Assembly (NCBI GenBank): GCA_963847185.1
Contig: CAWJYV010000007.1
Coordinates: forward strand, 672,001-736,000
Direction: 5' to 3'
Source: an uncultured Methanosarcinaceae archaeon
Lineage (GTDB): Archaea > Halobacteriota > Methanosarcinia > Methanosarcinales > Methanosarcinaceae
Length of the DNA: 64,000 nt
Every line of letters starts with the position of its first letter. Within the stretch, counting starts at the first letter, position 1. Under the pieces are notes generated by a model. That model worked only from the letters and a program-made list of their open reading frames with translations, searched no databases and was not told where the DNA came from. Made by a program: the position numbers and the translations under genes. Positions 3,368 through 64,000 of the stretch are shown one piece after another.

Positions 3368-3844
3368 ATGCCCGAGGTTACTGTTGTTGAACTAAGCCCC
3401 CAAGTAGTACTTGGAATACGCAAGAAAGGCTCTTACCAAGAAATTCCTTTAATGTTTCCCAGAATTTTTGATTTTGCTCTCAACAAAAATATTCAGATTG
3501 CTGGCTATCCCGTTTTCATCTGGCATGAGACTACGGTTGAAGAAGCTCAAAAAGCCGATACAGAAGGAAGTGCTGATATTGAAGTTTCATTCCCGATCTC
3601 AGAAATTATCGAAGTCCCGGAAGATAAGGAAATCCAGGTATATAAACTTCCGGGAGGAAAAATGGCAAAGATTGTTCATAAGGGTCCTTATGAAGAATGC
3701 ATTCTGACCTATGAAAAACTTTTTTCGTGGATTGCAGAAAGTGGAAAAATAATTGTTGGGCCTATTCGTGAGGTATATCTGAATGATCCCAGGGAAGTTC
3801 CGCCTGAAGAGATAACTACTGAAATTTACGCGCCTCTAGATTGA
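3368..3844 (+). CDS. GyrI-like small-molecule-binding protein
   Basis: LPGGKMA...HKGPYE....YEKL..WI...G...GPIREVYLNDP...TEIYAP. Confidence 0.9.
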   Translation: MPEVTVVELSPQVVLGIRKKGSYQEIPLMFPRIFDFALNKNIQIAGYPVFIWHETTVEEAQKADTEGSADIEVSFPISEIIEVPEDKEIQVYKLPGGKMAKIVHKGPYEECILTYEKLFSWIAESGKIIVGPIREVYLNDPREVPPEEITTEIYAPLD

Positions 3845-12910: not shown

Positions 12911-13457
12911 TTCAATACCAGTAATTCAACTTAGATTATCTAATGTTTCTCTGTGAACGATAATCATTTTTCTAGACCGTAAGTTATCAATTTTTTTACC
13001 CTGCTATCGAAGGAGCATTGTAATATATTTTCTTTATTTTAACTATCTCTGATTATCGATTTTAAGGCATCTAGAACTAATTTAAAGGTCTTTTACTGTT
13101 CGGTTTTTCCTGATGAGTTGAATCAGTATTGTTAACACTTAATCTCACGCATAAAAAACGCCATTTATTAACCTGGACCTTTATAATCCTCAATTATAAC
13201 AGTAACTTTATTATTGGACTGTATTTTGACTATTCGTTTTACAATTTTTCTATTTATTATCTAAATAGTTGCAAATATGTCGCAAATCTATATAAATATT
13301 AATTTTTCTTTATTTTTGAAGCTTATTTATTTGATATTTATGTTTAATTATATAAATACGAATTAAAAATAGAAATCTTTTAATCTATTGTTTTACTTGT
13401 TATAAATTTGGTGTTTATAAATTAATTTTTTTAATGAAGGCTTTTAGAGGTACTGAT

Positions 13458-14345
13458 ATGCAAAAAATGTTAAAAACAATTGTATTTTTTCTTTTAATTG
13501 CTACCATTGTCTTTGCAGCCGGCTGTGCTGAAAAGAGTGTAGACGATACAAAAGAAGTTGCCCCAGCAGAAGAAAACATTCCTGCTGAAGGAAGTGTTGG
13601 TGCTGGAGAAAATACTACTGCCGCAGAAAATACTGTTGCAGATAATACATCCGGGGAGATGCCCACTTACATCGTAGGAACAGAAGCCCAGTTTCCTCCT
13701 TTTGAGATTGTTGATTCTCAGGGGAATGTTATCGGCTTTGATGTTGACCTTCTGAACGCAATTGCGGAAGACCAGGGATTTAAAGTTCAGTATATGGACC
13801 AGGACTTCGCAGGTCTTATCCCAGCACTCCAGACCGGAAACATTGACATTATCGCCTCAGGGATGACAATTACTGAAGAGCGCGAAAAAGAAGTCGATTT
13901 CAGTGAGCCTTACATTACTGCAGGACTGGCTCTTGCCGTAACTGTTGACAATGAAGATATTAAAAGTGTAGATGACCTGAAGGGCAAGACAGCAGCTGTT
14001 CAGACAGGTTCCACTGGCTATATGAAAGCAGAAGAGCTTAAGAATGCAGGAGTTATTGCCGAAATCAAAGATTTCCCTCATGTAAATGAGGCTATTGAGG
14101 AAATAAAGATCGGTGGTGCAGATGTAATGATCAATGACCTGCCTGTCACAAATGCTTTTATTGCAGCTCAACCTGGAGTAATTAAAATCGTAGGTGAACC
14201 TCTTACTGGCGAATCCTATGGTTTTGCCGTTCGTTCTGGCAATACTGAACTTCTTAATAAGATCAATAAAGGTCTTGAAAACGTCAAAGCCAGCGGCAAG
14301 TATGATGAACTTATGAAAAACATTCCAAATTATATGGAAGAATAA
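13458..14345 (+). CDS. Polar amino acid ABC transporter, substrate-binding lipoprotein (GlnH-like)
   Basis: Lipobox; VGTEAQFPPFE, GFDVDL, SGMTITEER..VDFSEPY. Confidence 0.92.
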   Translation: MQKMLKTIVFFLLIATIVFAAGCAEKSVDDTKEVAPAEENIPAEGSVGAGENTTAAENTVADNTSGEMPTYIVGTEAQFPPFEIVDSQGNVIGFDVDLLNAIAEDQGFKVQYMDQDFAGLIPALQTGNIDIIASGMTITEEREKEVDFSEPYITAGLALAVTVDNEDIKSVDDLKGKTAAVQTGSTGYMKAEELKNAGVIAEIKDFPHVNEAIEEIKIGGADVMINDLPVTNAFIAAQPGVIKIVGEPLTGESYGFAVRSGNTELLNKINKGLENVKASGKYDELMKNIPNYMEE

Positions 14346-14759
14346 ATGAAGTTCTAACTTGAGAATCAAGCACTAATTGTGCTTCTCTCATTTTCACTTC
14401 TGTTTTTTCAGGCCAATTTTGCTAAACTCTTGTTGAAAGATTATTTGATTTCTAAAATCTCTTTATTTTCCTTTCTCATAACATTCTAACTTATCATGCC
14501 CCTGTTTAAAATGATTGGTTTTATATAATTGAATATTATTTATCAATATGTATTTCTATAAAACAGGTAACTGCACTGGATATTTCTCTAAAGGTCTTAT
14601 TAAGGACGCTCTGAAAGCTATATGCTGAAATGTGCACCGAAAAGACCCTGTTCTGGTTGCATCTGGAAAAACGTACATTCTTCATAAAGGTACTCTCAAC
14701 ACTTGCCATATTTGCTCCAAGTCCATCTCTATATTATCGTAAACATCTGAGGTCGAAGT

Positions 14760-15455
14760 TTGTCTCTTTTAGCCTCCTATCTTCACCACATTATCGCCGT
14801 GTTCCCCAGTTTGCTAAGGGGGGCAGTAATTACTGTAGAGGTCACTACCTTTGCAATATTTTTTGGATTGATGCTGGGGACTATTGCAGCCTTTGGAAAA
14901 CTCTCCAAAAGATCGCTTTTCAGAATTCCCAGTTCTATTTATGTTGATTTTATCAGGGGAACCCCTTTATTTGTTCAAATCCTGATTTTTTACTATGGTA
15001 TTCCCGGTCTTATTAACGGACTTACAGGTGAAGTGTTCCGCGTCGATCCAATTATCGCAGGTATTGCCGTATGCAGCATCAACAGCGGGGCATACAATGC
15101 GGAAATTGTACGTGCAGGCATCAAGTCTGTTGACAGAGGCCAGATGGAAGCAGCTCGTTCCCTTGGAATGACCGAAGGGCAGGCTATGAAGGAAGTAATT
15201 ATGCCTCAGGCTGTCAGGCTCATTATCCCCCCTCTGGGAAATGAATTCATTGCACTTTTGAAAGACTCTTCTCTACTGGCAGTTATCAGCGTACATGAGC
15301 TTTCCAAAAATGGAATGCTCTATGTCTCAAAAACATTTGCAGCCTTTCCAGCGTATATTTCGGTAGCTTTTGTGTATCTGGCATTGACCATGGGAATTTC
15401 CAGGATTCTTAATTACATTGAAAGGAGGCTCGGTGTAAGTGATAGAAGTGAATAA
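14760..15455 (+). CDS. Polar amino acid ABC transporter permease (GlnP-like)
   Basis: [33 protein letters not shown]; TTG start after GAGGT. Confidence 0.92.
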
Positions 15456-16161
15456 TCTTCACAAGAACTTCGGAAATTTGAAAGTCCTTAAAGGAATCAC
15501 TGAGAAGATTGAAGACAGTGAAGTGGTCTGTATAATTGGCCCTTCAGGGTCCGGCAAAAGCACTTTCCTCCGTTGCTTGAACCTCCTTGAAACCCCTACT
15601 TCCGGGGATATCTGGATTTATGGGGAAAAGATCACATCCCCTACTGTTAATATAAACAAAATCAGGGAAGAAGTAGGCATGGTTTTCCAGCGCTTCAACC
15701 TTTTTCCTCACATGACTGCTCTTAAGAATGTAGCTCTTGCCCCGATAAAGGTTCGTGGTATTTCCGAAAAAGAAGCTTACGACCGTGCCCGTGATCTCCT
15801 TAAAAAAGTAGGGCTTGAGGATAAAGCCGATGTCTATCCCAATTCTCTTTCCGGGGGTCAGCAGCAAAGGGTTGCAATCGCCAGAGCTCTTGCCATGCGT
15901 CCCAAAGTCATGCTTTTTGATGAGCCCACATCTGCTCTAGATCCTGAAATGGTCGGAGAAGTCTTAAACGTCATGAAAAGCCTTGCAAAAGAAGGCATGA
16001 CAATGGTTGTCGTGACACATGAAATGGGTTTTGCCAGGGAAGTAGGGAATCGAGTACTTTTCATGGATGACGGTATCATAGTCGAAAAAGGGACACCCCA
16101 CGAAATCTTCTTTGATGCTCAGAATGAAAGAACAAAGTCATTTTTGAGCAAGATTTTGTAA
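15439..16161 (+). CDS. Polar amino acid ABC transporter ATPase (GlnQ-like)
   Basis: [34 protein letters not shown]. Confidence 0.95.
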
Positions 16162-16890: not shown

Positions 16891-17559
16891 TCATGCTGTA
16901 AACACTACGTCTACTCTTTCTACATCCCACAAAGACCCCAGTTTTTCCATAATGTCTTCTTTTATTGCAGATGCAAACTGGTGATCTGCGGGCAGGTCTA
17001 CGACCACTCTAATCACTCCGTTTTCAACACTTGTTTTCAGGATAAGATTTGTACGGATTATGTCCAGGCCGGTTAGCGGGTTCATTACATGCTTAAGCCT
17101 ATTCCTGATAACTTCCTCTGTCGTAGGCTCCTTTTCGGTAACAAGTCCGTGCTTTTCTTCATAGTCTCTGATTGCAGCACGAAGACCCTCAACTGCAAGC
17201 ACTGAGCAGTGGGCTTTAATCGGAGGCAGCCCTCCAAGTTCTTCAGAAGCCTGTTTCCAGGTTATTTTTTTTGCTTCATCAAGAGTCTTTCCACGTGCCA
17301 TATCTGTTATAACCGAACCTGTAGCGATATTTGAAGCACAGCCATAAGATTCGAATTTTATGTCCTCAATAACCTTTGTGTCAGGATTGACCTTAAGATA
17401 AACTGCAACCATATCCCCGCATGCAGGGCTTCCTTCAAGACCTTTCCCATCAGGATTTTCTATTTTTCCTACGTTATGTGGATTCCTGAAATGTTCCAGC
17501 ACTTTTTCAGTGTAAGGAAACTTTATTGTTTCACTTTTCTCTTTGCGTTTAATCTCCAT
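16891..17559 (-). CDS. iscU: Fe-S scaffold IscU/NifU-N fused to a C-terminal DUF59/SufT-like domain
   Basis: YTEKVLEHF.NP.N.G, PACGD, YGCAS, LPP.K.HCS; C-terminal L..V.NP.TG.DI...NLI. Confidence 0.9.
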   Translation of the reverse strand: MEIKRKEKSETIKFPYTEKVLEHFRNPHNVGKIENPDGKGLEGSPACGDMVAVYLKVNPDTKVIEDIKFESYGCASNIATGSVITDMARGKTLDEAKKITWKQASEELGGLPPIKAHCSVLAVEGLRAAIRDYEEKHGLVTEKEPTTEEVIRNRLKHVMNPLTGLDIIRTNLILKTSVENGVIRVVVDLPADHQFASAIKEDIMEKLGSLWDVERVDVVFTA

Positions 17560-17608
17560 TTTCCGACCTTCTTTTATCCTGATTTCTTATGTTTCCTTTA
17601 TTTTCAGT

Positions 17609-18775
17609 TCATTTTCTTGCAAGGGGACTTATTTCTCTAAGCTTTGCCACAATCTCACTCATGGCATCAATAGCCGCATCGACATCTTCCATCTTATTGT
17701 ATCGTCCGAAGGTAAAACGAACTGATCCATGAGCTCTTTCATGATCTCCTCCAATACCCCTTATCACATGGCTGGCTTCAAGGGAGCGGCTAAAGCAGGC
17801 TGAACCTGTACTTACTGCAAACCCTCTCATGTCCATATGCAGAGTAACAGATTCTCCTTCTACATAGTGGAAAGTCAGGTTTGCGTTCTGTGGCAGGCGT
17901 TTTTCTCGGCTCCCATTGAGGGTAACATCCGAAATTTCGGAAAGGGCTTTCTCGATTACCCTATCTCTCATGGCTTCAAGCCTTCTATTTTCTTCTTCAG
18001 TTACGAGTTCTACTGCCTTTGAGAAACCTACGGCCCCTGGAATATTTTCCACTCCAGCCCTCAGGTTGAACTCCTGAAAACCTCCGTCCATAAATTTACT
18101 TATTGGCGTGTCTTTTCTGATGTAGAGAGCACCTACTCCCCTGGGGCCATGAATGGTGTGGGCTGACATAGTAACCAGATCTACGGGCAGTTCCTTCACA
18201 TTGAGGGGAAGCCGGGTAAAACTATGGGTGGCATCCGTATGCAAGAGCACATCTTTTTCTTTGCAGATCTCTGAAATAAGCTTCAGATCCTGCACTGTTC
18301 CTATTTCCTGGTTTCCATGCTGGATTGAGACAAGGATTGTCTCTTTTGCGATCGCTTTTCTTAGTCCTTCGAGGTCTACAAACCCATGTGCGTCTACGTC
18401 CAGGAAAGTTACGTCAAATCCCTGTTTCTGGAGAGCTTTTGCCGTATTCAGGACAGGAAAATCCTCTATTTTTGAGACAATAATATGCTTGCCTTTTCTT
18501 TCTTTAAGGGCCCAGGCCACTCCTTTAAGAGCAGTGTTGCTTGACTCCGTATCTCCAGAAGTGAAAATTACCTCGTTTGAATCAGCGCCGAGTCTTGCAA
18601 TTATACTTTCGCGTGATTTTTCGAGCCCTTCTTTTGCATCCAGGCCCATTGAATACCCAAATTCAGATGTTGCTACTGCATAGGTCTCAAAAAAATAAGG
18701 TTGCATTGCCTCAAGCACCCTTTCATCAAGACGGGTGGACGCAGCATTGTCAAGATAAACTATATTCTCAAATAT
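17609..18775 (-). CDS. iscS: IscS/NifS-like protein lacking the PLP lysine; frame extends to ATA 18775
   Basis: VYLDNAAST, FTSG.TES.N, GGFQE..LRAG.EN, STGSAC; SAHT in place of SAHK. Confidence 0.88.
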   Translation of the reverse strand: MFENIVYLDNAASTRLDERVLEAMQPYFFETYAVATSEFGYSMGLDAKEGLEKSRESIIARLGADSNEVIFTSGDTESSNTALKGVAWALKERKGKHIIVSKIEDFPVLNTAKALQKQGFDVTFLDVDAHGFVDLEGLRKAIAKETILVSIQHGNQEIGTVQDLKLISEICKEKDVLLHTDATHSFTRLPLNVKELPVDLVTMSAHTIHGPRGVGALYIRKDTPISKFMDGGFQEFNLRAGVENIPGAVGFSKAVELVTEEENRRLEAMRDRVIEKALSEISDVTLNGSREKRLPQNANLTFHYVEGESVTLHMDMRGFAVSTGSACFSRSLEASHVIRGIGGDHERAHGSVRFTFGRYNKMEDVDAAIDAMSEIVAKLREISPLARK

Positions 18776-18965
18776 TTTTTCCCCTCCTCAGATTAAATAG
18801 ATCTTCTACTTTATAATTAAATTTCAAGTTTACAATTAAATTTTGAGAATTATCGGATAGGATTCTAAACACGTTATTTGCTGAATATAACTGATTAAGA
18901 ATTGAAACAAATCAAATAGAAATTCGGACTGCCATAATAACCTAAGCCTTAAAAATTCCTAATAA

Positions 18966-19385
18966 TCAAATAAATAGAGTTACGTTAGCATCTCTTGCTT
19001 CATGGATGTAAGACCCTACAGCTCCCCACTCATCTATCCATTCCGTTCGGAGTTCTTCTTTCTTTATGCCCATAATTTCCATGGTCATTTCACAGGCGAT
19101 TATCTTTCCGCCAAGTTCTTTGAAATCACTCATGAGCTTTTCAAGTGAAGCAACGTTGGCTTTGTCCATTCTCCTTTTGACCATCCACCTTCCAAGTCCA
19201 AGCATGTTCATCTTGGAAAGAGGCCCCTTCTCAAGTTCTCCTTTCTTTAACCTCATTAGTCCCCAGAAAGTGAAGTATATCGAGGCTTCCATCCCCATTG
19301 CCAGGGCACCGTTCCCAATTATAAGTGCACTGTATACTTTGTCCATGTCTCCACTGTGCAAAACAATAACTGTCTTTTCCCCCAT
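18966..19385 (-). CDS. DsrE/DsrF/DrsH-like sulfur carrier
   Basis: GA.AMG....IYFTFWGL, IIACEMTM..MGI. Confidence 0.9.
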   Translation of the reverse strand: MGEKTVIVLHSGDMDKVYSALIIGNGALAMGMEASIYFTFWGLMRLKKGELEKGPLSKMNMLGLGRWMVKRRMDKANVASLEKLMSDFKELGGKIIACEMTMEIMGIKKEELRTEWIDEWGAVGSYIHEARDANVTLFI

Positions 19386-19404
19386 TTTCCTTCCCCTTTC
19401 GGTT

Positions 19405-19632
19405 TCACCTGCGGATCTTTATCTCCCACTCTTTACCTCCCTCTTTGTCTTCAATTTCCAGTACCTTGAATCCCATTGCCTCACAGGCCATAGGAATTTC
19501 TTTTTTTGATGCCGGATGCGTACCCTTTACAATTACAAGATCTCCTGGAGAAGCTTTTTTTAATGCTTTTCTGCACTCCACCAGTGGAACAGGGCAGGTC
19601 TGCTTGCGGACGTCTATTTCTATTTCTGCCAC
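19405..19632 (-). CDS. TusA/SirA family sulfurtransferase
   Basis: IDVR...CPVP motif; 75 aa; GTG start after GGGGTGA. Confidence 0.9.
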   Translation of the reverse strand: MAEIEIDVRKQTCPVPLVECRKALKKASPGDLVIVKGTHPASKKEIPMACEAMGFKVLEIEDKEGGKEWEIKIRR

Positions 19633-21252: not shown

Positions 21253-23180
21253 TCAGAGCTTTTTCTTCAATATGAAATATTCTATAAGGATCATCAATAA
21301 AGGCAGGGAAATAGCCATTAGAATTTTCGCTTTTCCCATTGGTTTTGTTGTTCTTCTGTCCTCATTTCCTACGCCTTTATCCAAAATAGATTTTCCTTCA
21401 TCCTCCAGGCCTTTTAGAGTTTCCTTGATTGATGCTCCTGTCTGAGTTTTATTTTCGTCTGTTTTTTCTTCAATGCCATTGTATCCGGTTATTGCAAATG
21501 GAGAGAATCCAGGACTTTCTGCCTTGAAATACAGATATTTACTGTCTTCCCCTGAAAGAGTGGTTGGAAGTTCATTCCATTTCTTGTCACTGTACCTGTT
21601 CAGGATGATTGAAGACTTGTTAATACTTTTATCCTGCATCCAGGATTTTTCAACTCTGAAATTTATGACTGCATTTTCGAGATTATCTGTGTCGCTTCCA
21701 TACCCGCTGTTTCCAACCCATATATTGAGGTAGTTATAGACTTCGTCTTCAGGTGCATCCGGAGTGAGAGTGGATTTATTTTTCAGCATTTCAACAATAG
21801 TTGTTGTCTTGCCAACAGTCTTCTTTGAATCAAAGCTCAAACTTACAATAGCAGTAGCGTTATTTATGAACTCAAACTTTATAAATTTTCCACTGGTAAT
21901 GAAAACCTGGGAAAGTTCCTTTACTTTCACATTCGATGCGGGCTCTGGAGAACCGCCGCCAGCACCGCCACTAGAACTTGATTTTGATTTTGAGCTGGAT
22001 CCAGAGCTGGAACCTGAACTACTGAATCTGAACCTGAACTCTCGCCTGAAGAGGATTTTGTCACATTCACAGTTTTTGTGAGTTCATTGTTTGTTTCGTC
22101 TTTTTCACGTATCACTGTTCCGGAATCCACTGTAAGTTTTACTTCGATTTGTCCCTCGACTGTAGGAGTCCAGAAAAATGTGATCGGTGACGTTCCACCT
22201 GCAGAAAGGGCAGGTACCGTTGTTTGCCCGCTGGAAGTCTCATTGATTCCCTTGATGTTATATTTGAGTTCGCATCTTGATGAGCTCCCAGGCCCATTAT
22301 TTTTTACTGTTACTGCGAAAGTAATGTTTTCTCCGGGCTCCGGAGCTTCCGGATTTACAGAAAGAGACTCTATAGTCAGATCAGGAGGTATGGCTAATAT
22401 GTTCACTTTTTTTGTGAGTCCGTTGTTCGTTTCGTTACTTTCATATACTGCTGTTCCTGAATCAATAAGTCCCCCTATTTCTATCTGGCCTTCTTTGTCT
22501 GGGGTTAAGGAAAATACAACAGATGTACTCTCTTCCGCTGGAAGAGGTGAAACATTAATATCCTGACCTGCAACCCCGTCAATATAATATCTCACCATAA
22601 CAGCTTCTGAGGGGGCTGTACCCTGGTTTTTTATTTTCAGGGCAATATTTAAGAGATTGCCTACTTGAGGGGCAGATGATCCCGGAACAATGTCTTCAAT
22701 TATCAGGTCTGGGAGAGGATTTTCTATTACCGTTAATGTGGCTGTTCTCTGGTTATTTTCATCATTGCTTTCGACTACCAAATTTTCTTCATCGACCTTT
22801 GCGGTCATCTCCACGGTACCCTCAGTTCCTAAATTCCATAACAATGATATTTGTCTACTCTGCCCGGCTACTATTTCAGGGACTTCGCTCTTTCCTATAG
22901 AGTTTCCATCGCTATAATAAGCTACATCAGTTACTCCCGAGCTTGCTGTTCCTTGATTTTTTATTGTTGCTGTAATAGTTACCGTTTGTCCAGGTTCTGG
23001 ATTCACTGGATTAAAAGAAAGATCTTCAATTATCAGATCTGGAAATTCATTAACAGTTGAATTATTTCCTGTATCATTTTCATCTGCGGCAGTTATAATT
23101 TCGGGCATTAGTCCTGGGATGATTAAAACTATTAATAATATCGAGATTAAAGAATTGTAAAAACCTGTTTTCATTTTCAT
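21253..23180 (-). CDS. Cell-surface protein: three CARDB domains, Ser/Gly linker and PGF-pre-PGF domain; frameshift near 22023
   Basis: PDL.I...KNQG...VD....V.E..E.NN three times; the other frame continues SSSGSSSGSSS...GGGSPEPASNVKVKE...PGFSPFAITG. Confidence 0.85.
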
Positions 23181-23692
23181 CGGCTTTGCCCCCACCTTTG
23201 TAAACAAAAATGTCTGATATATACTACTGATTCTCCGATAATTATTTCGTGGATAATATAAATAAAGTTTCTGATCTTTAATTCTGAAATATATCTTATT
23301 ATAAAATTGTTTATTAAGACATTTATATATTGCCCCGGTATAATCCTCGTACAATTTTTGGAGCAAAAACTTTAATCATTTACTATTTTTAGTTTAGTTT
23401 TTCAGTTTATACAATTTCTTTTAAGCTTACAATGTAAAAGTGAATTTTCCCAGCCATTATATATCTTTTGTTATTTTTTCCAATCCCAATCATAATAGAA
23501 TATAATTTTGTAAGCTTTCAAAGTAAATGGACAATGTACAATAAAAGGGCAAAGAAAAAAAAGTGCAAAAAGGAAAAAAAAAAAAAAAAAAATAAATAAA
23601 TAAAAAATAAATAAATGCTGTATGAGAAAAGTGAAATAAATAGAGTAATAAGCGTAAAGTCTCTAAGAGTAAAGAGTAAAAATAAAGAGGAA

Positions 23693-59614: not shown

Positions 59615-61089
<1,475 letters not shown>

Positions 61090-61312
61090 AAGCACAAAAC
61101 ACACCAACCAGATGCCGATAAACCGAACAAAATCCTCAAACCATTAACTACTCGATCATAATCTAATGATCAATTTTTAACTCATTTAATGCACCCGGTA
61201 AGTAAATTATCGGGGAAGGACGGATCGCCTGTGCGGAACCGCAGGCTCATGAAGTCATGTATAGGTGCTGTATACTGGACGCTAACTGGACCTGGTTAGG
61301 ATATACAGGAAT

Positions 61313-64000
<2,688 letters not shown>

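Follow-up and report, generated by a model that had tools for sequence, protein, structure and literature searches.

A lysine-less IscS homologue of Methanosarcinaceae is encoded beside TusA, a DsrE-like protein, and an IscU-DUF59 fusion: a candidate carrier-fed route of iron-sulfur cluster assembly

The closest structurally solved relative of the system reported here is the IscS-IscU pair of Archaeoglobus fulgidus (structures 4eb5, 4eb7, and 4hvk; D199K variant 4r5f), in which IscS is described as inactive and as binding pyridoxamine phosphate (PMP), with its Cys ligating a [2Fe-2S] cluster on IscU (PMC8918507; PMC7585200; PMC13066941). The sulfur source of this pair is treated as an open question in a 2022 review, which asks how cluster assembly runs in A. 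fulgidus without desulfurase activity and offers only free sulfide, as a guess (PMC8918507). We analysed a stretch of 64,000 nucleotides from an uncultured Methanosarcinaceae archaeon (assembly GCA_963847185.1, contig CAWJYV010000007.1, positions 672,001 to 736,000; hereafter the window), in which four adjacent genes encode a TusA-family protein, a DsrE2-like protein, an IscS homologue without the lysine that forms the Schiff base with pyridoxal 5'-phosphate (PLP), and an IscU protein fused to a DUF59 domain. This IscS (IscS1) shares with its A. fulgidus counterpart the missing PLP lysine, the retained loop Cys, and the pairing with IscU. At the lysine site the A. fulgidus protein has Asp, not Thr; it also keeps His104, and its IscU has no DUF59 fusion.

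Parts of the cluster also resemble other described systems. The minimal iron-sulfur (MIS) system of archaea reportedly goes back to a founding paper by Garcia et al. in 2022. MIS is described as a two-gene iscS-iscU-like core (MisS/MisU) without chaperones, for which sulfide is discussed as a possible source of sulfur and of which Methanosarcina acetivorans is said to have three copies; the passages of PMC13066941 devoted to MIS mention neither a lysine-less subclass nor TusA or DsrE partners. In Escherichia coli, TusA binds IscS (PMC13066941). That complex (3lvj) unites an IscS-family protein with a CPxP carrier of the TusA family, as in the window cluster, but in E. coli it is a catalytically active, PLP-dependent IscS that charges TusA, and iscS and tusA are unlinked there. 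TusA and DsrE proteins are described more generally as cysteine-based sulfur carriers, and the cascades of sulfur oxidisers (Metallosphaera DsrE3A/TusA; sHdr sets) likewise employ a tusA-dsrE pair carrying persulfide or thiosulfonate (PMC11094781). Those cascades feed dissimilatory oxidation (sHdr, Dsr), whereas the pair described here is linked to an iron-sulfur (Fe-S) scaffold in anaerobes. The features of the window cluster are listed below; each family match is given with its E-value or bit score, or both.

19405-19632, minus strand: tusA, 75 amino acids (aa), GTG start, CPVP Cys motif; PF01206, 9.8e-21, 73.8 bits against a cut-off of 28.6
18966-19385, minus strand: dsrE2-like gene (DrsE_2 family), 139 aa, Cys in IIACEMTM; PF13686, 2.1e-37, 128.9 bits against a cut-off of 25
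18776-18965, minus strand: AT-rich spacer between dsrE and iscS1, 190 bp; possible internal promoter
17609-18775, minus strand: iscS1, lysine-less IscS homologue, about 388 aa, stop codon at 17611-17609; Aminotran_5, PF00266, 6.4e-64, 216.7 bits
18155-18157, minus strand: Thr codon (ACC) at the PLP Schiff-base lysine site of iscS1, located from the sequence and alignment to IscS structures
17795-17797, minus strand: loop Cys codon (TGC, in GSAC) of iscS1, located in the same way
16891-17559, minus strand: iscU-DUF59 fusion gene, 222 aa; NifU_N and FeS_assembly_P
17149-17514, minus strand: IscU scaffold domain, residues 16-137 of the fusion; PF01592, 143.9 bits
16906-17118, minus strand: DUF59/FeS_assembly_P domain, residues 148-218 of the fusion, without Cys; PF01883, 49.1 bits against a cut-off of 23.5

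The best match of IscS1 in the PDB was A. fulgidus IscS (4eb5, 1.5e-100), and its alignments to IscS structures extended over the full length. In E. coli IscS, a His stacks on the PLP and a Gln contacts its O3'. In IscS1, the lysine site is occupied by Thr (SAHT in place of the canonical SAHK; Asp in A. fulgidus IscS), the position of the stacking His (His104) by Asp (EDFPV), and that of the Gln (Gln183) by His (DATHS), and the Cys of the GSAC loop (Cys328) is retained. The Thr, Asp, and His residues were recovered by motif search in 26 of the 26 readable loci among 30 from Methanosarcinaceae, and the corresponding five-position pattern, DHHTC, was present in 13 of 14 further loci of the clade that includes the window gene (type A, described below), in which the lysine-site residue is T or L. 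Since these residues recur across loci, the substitutions are not sequencing noise. Across 19 type-A sequences, conservation reaches 90% or more at D105, H184, and H206 and is complete at C327; with its replacement residues conserved in this way, the pocket looks remodelled rather than left to decay freely. IscS1 scored below all NCBIfam desulfurase equivalog cut-offs (NifS/IscS, 439.4 bits against 530.75, and 385 against 643.2). Judged from its sequence, IscS1 is most likely a non-catalytic IscS, or pseudo-enzyme, in which the PLP lysine and two other cofactor contacts are gone and the mobile-loop Cys is kept.

The association of lysine loss with the carrier genes was examined in two samples. 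An even sample of 401 genomes of the window's phylum confined IscS1 matches of at least 69% identity to Methanosarcinaceae, the next best reaching at most 51%; from these lower matches, the 60 best-scoring of those listed were taken, giving 61 IscS genes. The second sample came from a prokaryote-wide scan with one genome per species and consisted of the best 80 of 598 confirmed loci. In the phylum subset, 10 of the 61 genes were lysine-less (nine Asp, one Gln), and every one of the 10 had an adjacent, Pfam-confirmed tusA, with dsrE placed between tusA and iscS in six. Searches with tblastn and with custom hidden Markov models (HMMs; E<=10) found TusA or DsrE within about 4 kb of none of the 51 lysine-bearing genes, and a Pfam search of the 132 same-strand open reading frames (ORFs) flanking these genes returned no PF01206, PF02635, or PF13686, giving NifU_N, SUI1, HTH_3, CutA1, and others. 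Among the best 80 of 598 loci, 22 were lysine-less; tusA was linked in 20 of them, 15 of which also had dsrE. None of the 58 lysine-bearing loci had tusA at E<=1e-3, as judged for these 58 by the custom HMM alone, and the best match under relaxed thresholds (E=0.034) was a marginal one to an ORF in L190 that is encoded on the other strand and lies some 4.6 kb away from a lysine-bearing IscS gene.

When the two samples were pooled, giving 141 IscS homologues, tusA was linked to 30 of 32 lysine-less genes and to 0 of 109 lysine-bearing ones; a linked dsrE was also present at 21 of the 32, and neither gene was found at the 109. Linkage to tusA, often with dsrE, is thus nearly exclusive to lysine-less IscS, a strongly positive outcome for the co-occurrence across genomes that the initial annotation had proposed as a check, and one that includes the A. 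fulgidus type. Because of this distribution, we consider functional coupling of the four genes very probable. The linkage of tusA to iscS also survives rearrangement of gene order: tusA lies upstream of iscS in most loci and downstream of iscU in L084, L143, L149, and L183. Loss of the lysine was likewise seen in 22 of the 150 nearest representatives of clusters formed at 50% identity, where it is replaced by T, L, D, M, S, R, P, G, I, or A; the loop Cys is retained in 18 of these 22, while three sequences are truncated upstream of that position and one carries Tyr there.

The lysine-less proteins fall into two types. Type A, which includes the window gene, has the pattern D/H/H/T/C at the five positions and an IscU that is always fused to a Cys-free DUF59. 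Among the best 80 of 598 loci, type-A proteins with 65-71% identity occur in Dehalococcoidales, other Chloroflexi, Halanaerobiales, Clostridia, Nitrospiraceae, Heimdallarchaeota, and Thermoplasmata, and a protein from Thermacetogeniaceae is 66% identical. In the tree, a mixed clade (support 99*) contains Methanosarcinaceae (95*) and, as their sister, a bacterial group (98*). This placement, together with the 65-71% identity in distant taxa, implies that the four-gene module crossed between domains by horizontal spread. Type B, the A. fulgidus kind, has the pattern H/A/N/D/C and a plain IscU. It is spread over several families within the window's phylum, including one whose IscS marks it as Archaeoglobus-like, and further copies come from records of Bathyarchaeota, actinobacteria, and Dehalococcoidales. 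One type-B protein (L136) is near-identical to crystallised A. fulgidus IscS 4eb5 over the full length (E=4.8e-228) and is encoded in a tusA-dsrE-iscS-iscU cluster. Types A and B, and with them the window and A. fulgidus proteins, stand apart in both trees (supports 93 and 92). Several independent losses of the lysine were considered; the trees point to two clades, and since uniting the lysine-less proteins in one clade is not rejected by the approximately unbiased (AU) test (p = 0.125), convergence is not claimed. The lysine may have been lost once or twice rather than many times.

The other three proteins retain the residues expected of their families. In TusA, C13, P14, and P16 are invariant among 16 orthologues. 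The best solved relatives of the DsrE-like protein are 3pnx (1.1e-19) and 2qs7 (1.8e-17), with which the Cys of IIACEMTM is aligned, and in all linked copies seen, both this Cys and the CPxP Cys of TusA are conserved. The window IscU keeps its three Cys and Asp (C/D/C/C) and the motif LPPIK; CDCC is kept in 44 of 44 IscU-DUF59 fusions and LPP[IV]K in 30 of the 44, the window protein among them. A conserved Cys is common among DUF59 proteins. The fusion's C-terminal domain shares PF01883 with the SufT/DUF59 Fe-S maturation factors; it is joined to IscU and free of Cys, its 44 copies in the 44 fusions containing none. TusA scored 27.6-32.3 bits against the NCBIfam TusA/YedF/YeeD equivalogs, below their cut-offs of 78 to 147.5, and the DsrE-like protein 63.2 bits against NCBIfam DsrE2, below the cut-off of 210; all four proteins miss the NCBIfam equivalog cut-offs, which fits a distinct set of subfamilies. 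A predicted complex of IscS1 with TusA scored 0.21 and 0.25 against a mark of 0.32, values that, without controls, speak neither for nor against binding. The sequence features of the initial annotation accordingly hold throughout: four co-oriented genes at 16891-19632, each identified with Pfam; SAHT with ACC at 18157-18155, EDFPV, DATH, and GSAC in the IscS homologue; the three Cys of IscU; CPxP of TusA; and the Cys of the DsrE ACE motif.

It had also been suspected that an atypical IscS paralogue was already on record in Methanosarcina, rightly so. Window iscS1 and iscU1 are orthologues of those for M. acetivorans IscS1/IscU1 (MA0808/MA0807); M. acetivorans IscS1 (P0094) is 88% identical to the window protein, Methanosarcina orthologues are 85-97% identical, and all five compared have SAHT, EDFPV, and DATHS. 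The window itself belongs to a Methanosarcina genome. Deere et al. (2020) describe IscS1 of M. acetivorans as missing PLP-binding residues and the catalytically essential lysine, suggest that it may act like A. fulgidus IscS, and report that recombinant IscS1 expressed alone went into inclusion bodies (PMC7585200). The lysine-less state of IscS1 and its likeness to the inactive A. fulgidus protein are therefore already published, and the linkage to TusA and DsrE is what is apparently new here. The sections of that paper dealing with IscS1 draw no comparison outside Methanosarcina, and neither TusA nor DsrE occurs in its main text, although its supplementary Figs. S1 and S2 may name neighbouring genes (PMC7585200). 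The linkage was likewise not found in the literature searched, which left most subscription journals outside.

Within Methanosarcinaceae, the IscU-DUF59 gene follows iscS1 in 30 of 30 fetched loci, tusA and dsrE are adjacent in 24 of 30, and iscS1 and iscU1 are intact and free of stops in all 30, with 72-88% identity. Among 52 genomes of the family other than the window's own, 46 have IscS1 together with a DsrE orthologue, one has IscS1 without it, and five lack both, counts taken over kin that reflect few independent events. Twelve Methanosarcina genomes besides the window's were sampled, of which 11 have the cluster and one does not. In three genera dsrE and iscS are 12-35 bp apart; in the 16 loci of g1 and g7 (Methanosarcina and its sister genus) the gap is 82-484 bp. 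The term operon, used in the initial annotation, is more than the window supports: with 190 bp between dsrE and iscS1, where sister genera have 12-35 bp, this genome does not establish a single operon. In the window, iscU1 follows iscS1 after 49 bp. Relatives of all four genes are covered by contigs from the RNA libraries of two studies, in which carry-over of DNA is possible. Among metatranscriptome contigs of relatives (shares 0.06-0.07; 85% likeness), one bridges iscS1 and iscU1 and two bridge tusA and dsrE. No RNA-library contig spans the dsrE-iscS1 spacer, a result that is neutral on the operon, as contigs are not transcripts and the spacer diverges between species.

The start of iscS1 had to be placed by comparison. 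The start of the listed ORF, GTG at 18718, would cut off the family-invariant motif YLDNA; upstream, the frame stays open as far as a stop at 18790-18788, and no ATG, GTG, or TTG occurs before 18718. The ATA at 18775-18773 is aligned with the ATG or GTG start of other genera, lies 5-7 nt behind a strong ribosome-binding site of the GGAGGGG type, and is found in 16 of 16 g1/g7 loci (L013-L028). As the GTG would remove YLDNA and the ATA coincides with starts elsewhere behind a ribosome-binding site, ATA 18775-18773 is most likely the start.

A gene of the HIT family (PF01230; 19787-20206, minus strand) is co-oriented with the cluster and lies 154 bp upstream of tusA. We weighed whether the module has it as a fifth gene and rejected this because it is linked in two genera only, beside the cluster in 16 of 16 g1/g7 loci and in 0 of 14 other Methanosarcinaceae loci; it probably belongs to the "four additional genes" of Deere et al. 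(PMC7585200). Elsewhere in the window, translations alone suggest an operon for an amino-acid-type ABC transporter (binding protein, permease, and ATPase) at 13434-16161 on the plus strand, upstream of the cluster, and, to its other side, a 479-aa repeat-rich secreted protein at 21927-23366 on the minus strand. An archaeal 16S rRNA gene occupies 59615-61089, and a 23S rRNA gene runs from 61300 to the window end, where it is cut off (both plus strand); they account for the rise in GC content to 0.54 at 59615-64000.

The genes flanking other copies of the module otherwise vary by locus, with occasional iron or Fe-S neighbours (ferritin, Nfu, Rrf2, glutaredoxin, a rhodanese fusion, FTR1, and ferredoxin). 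Among the copies in L149 (7198-7692 and 10086-11471), L151 (7842-9365), and L115 (2502-3335), ferritin stands between iscS and iscU in some, a metallo-beta-lactamase-rhodanese fusion precedes dsrE, an FTR1 iron permease gene precedes tusA, and Nfu-like, Rrf2, glutaredoxin, and ferredoxin-thioredoxin-reductase-like genes follow iscU. In the Archaeoglobus-like locus (L136, 376-2970, minus strand), a further DsrE-like gene comes after tusA-dsrE-iscS-iscU, together with a 346-aa ORF that matches no family and a gene for SepCysS (579.7 bits), which is likewise an enzyme in need of a sulfur donor. Just upstream of lysine-less iscS, ORFs without a Pfam or NCBIfam match were observed in Heimdallarchaeota (L141, 5555-5929, 124 aa) and Thorarchaeota (L153, 5538-5993, 151 aa); these could encode unrecognised carriers that replace DsrE or TusA.

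The best overall reading of these data is that the pseudo-enzyme IscS1 and IscU1 are fed sulfane sulfur by TusA, often together with DsrE, a reading to which we give an even chance of being right. The four genes would then form a conserved, self-contained module of Fe-S cluster assembly, in which IscS1 would bind its partner, an IscU fused to a Cys-free DUF59/SufT-like adaptor domain, and lend its loop Cys as a cluster ligand or as a relay site for persulfide, as in A. fulgidus. TusA, the universal partner, and the DsrE2-like protein, a frequent one, would supply protein-bound sulfane sulfur, because IscS1 would be unable to take sulfur from cysteine. The carriers may be charged from inorganic sulfur (sulfide-derived polysulfide or thiosulfate) or by another sulfurtransferase, and the sulfane sulfur would pass to the IscS1 Cys or directly to IscU. 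Here the physical contacts, the direction from TusA and DsrE to the IscS1 Cys or straight to IscU, and the ultimate source of the sulfur are what we infer, and the specific order TusA/DsrE, then IscS1 Cys, then IscU, is put forward tentatively, as slightly less likely than not.

A number of observations weigh against this reading. The host genome also has a canonical IscS (SAHK, EHHAV, DAVQ) beside a plain IscU, as well as a SufS-like gene, and the cell therefore has no need of a cysteine-independent route; of the cysteine-independent relay suggested in the initial annotation, the lysine-less IscS1 stands, whereas dependence of the organism on such a relay does not follow. Consistent detection in M. 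acetivorans proteomes is described as limited to IscS2/IscU2 (PMC7585200). The linkage itself is broken in places. Neither tusA nor dsrE lies within 1.5 kb of iscS1 in 5 of 5 examined g5 loci, the DsrE orthologue is found away from iscS1 in 8 of 8 g5 genomes, and in one of these (G388) the tusA and dsrE orthologues (78% identity) form an isolated pair some 110 kb away from iscS1. Both genes have been deleted in G268, where 80 bp from the 3' end of dsrE persist upstream of iscS1 (L041). In two of the 11 other cluster-bearing Methanosarcina genomes a carrier gene is frameshifted beside intact iscS1 and iscU1, namely tusA in G140 (L016, about 3591-3817) and dsrE, with an internal deletion, in G298 (L014, about 2258-2540). 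From these two pseudogenes and the widened dsrE-iscS gaps, of which the 190 bp in the window is one, the module looks ancestral and tight, loosening in Methanosarcina. Outside the family, two lysine-less loci are without tusA (L153 in Thorarchaeota and L179 in Ignavibacteria), and the association as a whole may rest on one or two ancient events followed by inheritance rather than on dozens of independent ones.

The direction of transfer faces a precedent, in that sulfur in E. coli runs from IscS to TusA, the reverse of what is proposed here (PMC13066941). This precedent, with the published sulfide hypothesis for A. fulgidus (PMC8918507), lends substance to an alternative in which IscS1-IscU1 uses free sulfide and TusA and DsrE act downstream or beside it, draining sulfur from the IscS1 Cys or from the cluster for thiolation (tRNA, molybdenum cofactor, or SepCysS-type). 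The SepCysS gene and second DsrE-like gene after iscU in L136, and the g5 tusA-dsrE pair placed away from iscS1, would agree with such an outlet. A lysine-less IscS, however, makes no persulfide from cysteine, so that there is nothing obvious for TusA to receive, and tusA is linked to none of the 109 competent IscS genes, though enzymes of that kind are known to charge TusA; we regard the outlet as unlikely. It is still less probable that TusA serves as a regulator, competing with IscU for the surface of IscS1 and gating occupancy of the scaffold without sulfur transfer. A title cited in PMC13066941 does place IscU and TusA at "different but competing sites" of E. coli IscS, but the conservation of the TusA CPxP Cys and the DsrE Cys in linked copies points to thiol chemistry, and DsrE has no known regulatory role of such a kind.

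The module might instead handle reactive sulfane sulfur, by buffering, detoxifying, or storing persulfide and polysulfide in sulfidic anaerobes, with Fe-S assembly as a secondary matter. Detoxification of reactive sulfur species has been proposed as a role of DsrE4-type proteins (PMC11094781), and all named hosts are from anaerobic lineages; against this, the cluster ligands of IscU are kept in all 44 fusions, in which IscU is joined to an Fe-S assembly domain, and the Nfu, Rrf2, and ferritin neighbours point to Fe-S biogenesis, leaving this function a small chance of being the principal one. We think it similarly improbable that the module is a decaying relic of little present function in Methanosarcina, an explanation suggested by the g1/g7 spacers of 82-484 bp, the two frameshifted carrier genes, the non-canonical ATA start of iscS1, and the proteome record of IscS1/IscU1 (PMC7585200). 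Decay is difficult to reconcile with iscS1 and iscU1 that are intact across all 30 family loci and with replaced pocket residues that are conserved, and the RNA-library contigs covering relatives of the four genes argue in the same direction, subject to possible DNA carry-over.

Assembly on IscS1-IscU1 fed by TusA and DsrE could also be read more broadly. Lysine-less IscS with TusA, and often DsrE, would then constitute a distinct, ancient, and horizontally mobile Fe-S route, in which carrier-bound inorganic sulfane sulfur replaces PLP-catalysed desulfuration of cysteine. Such a route would answer the question of the A. fulgidus sulfur, and the type-A pocket (D105, H184, and H206) would have been rebuilt to bind something new, such as a metal or persulfide. 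We hold this extended version to be doubtful.

Lysine-less IscS has been a puzzle since the A. fulgidus structures, and the linkage described here names TusA and DsrE-like carriers as candidate sulfur donors. The question thereby becomes testable by persulfide transfer and reconstitution, using proteins that have already been crystallised. The finding bears on how sulfur is routed into the Fe-S proteins of strict anaerobes, including those on which methanogenesis depends, and it suggests a further branch of the "minimal" iron-sulfur cluster (ISC)/MIS systems, moving between bacteria and archaea as a unit.

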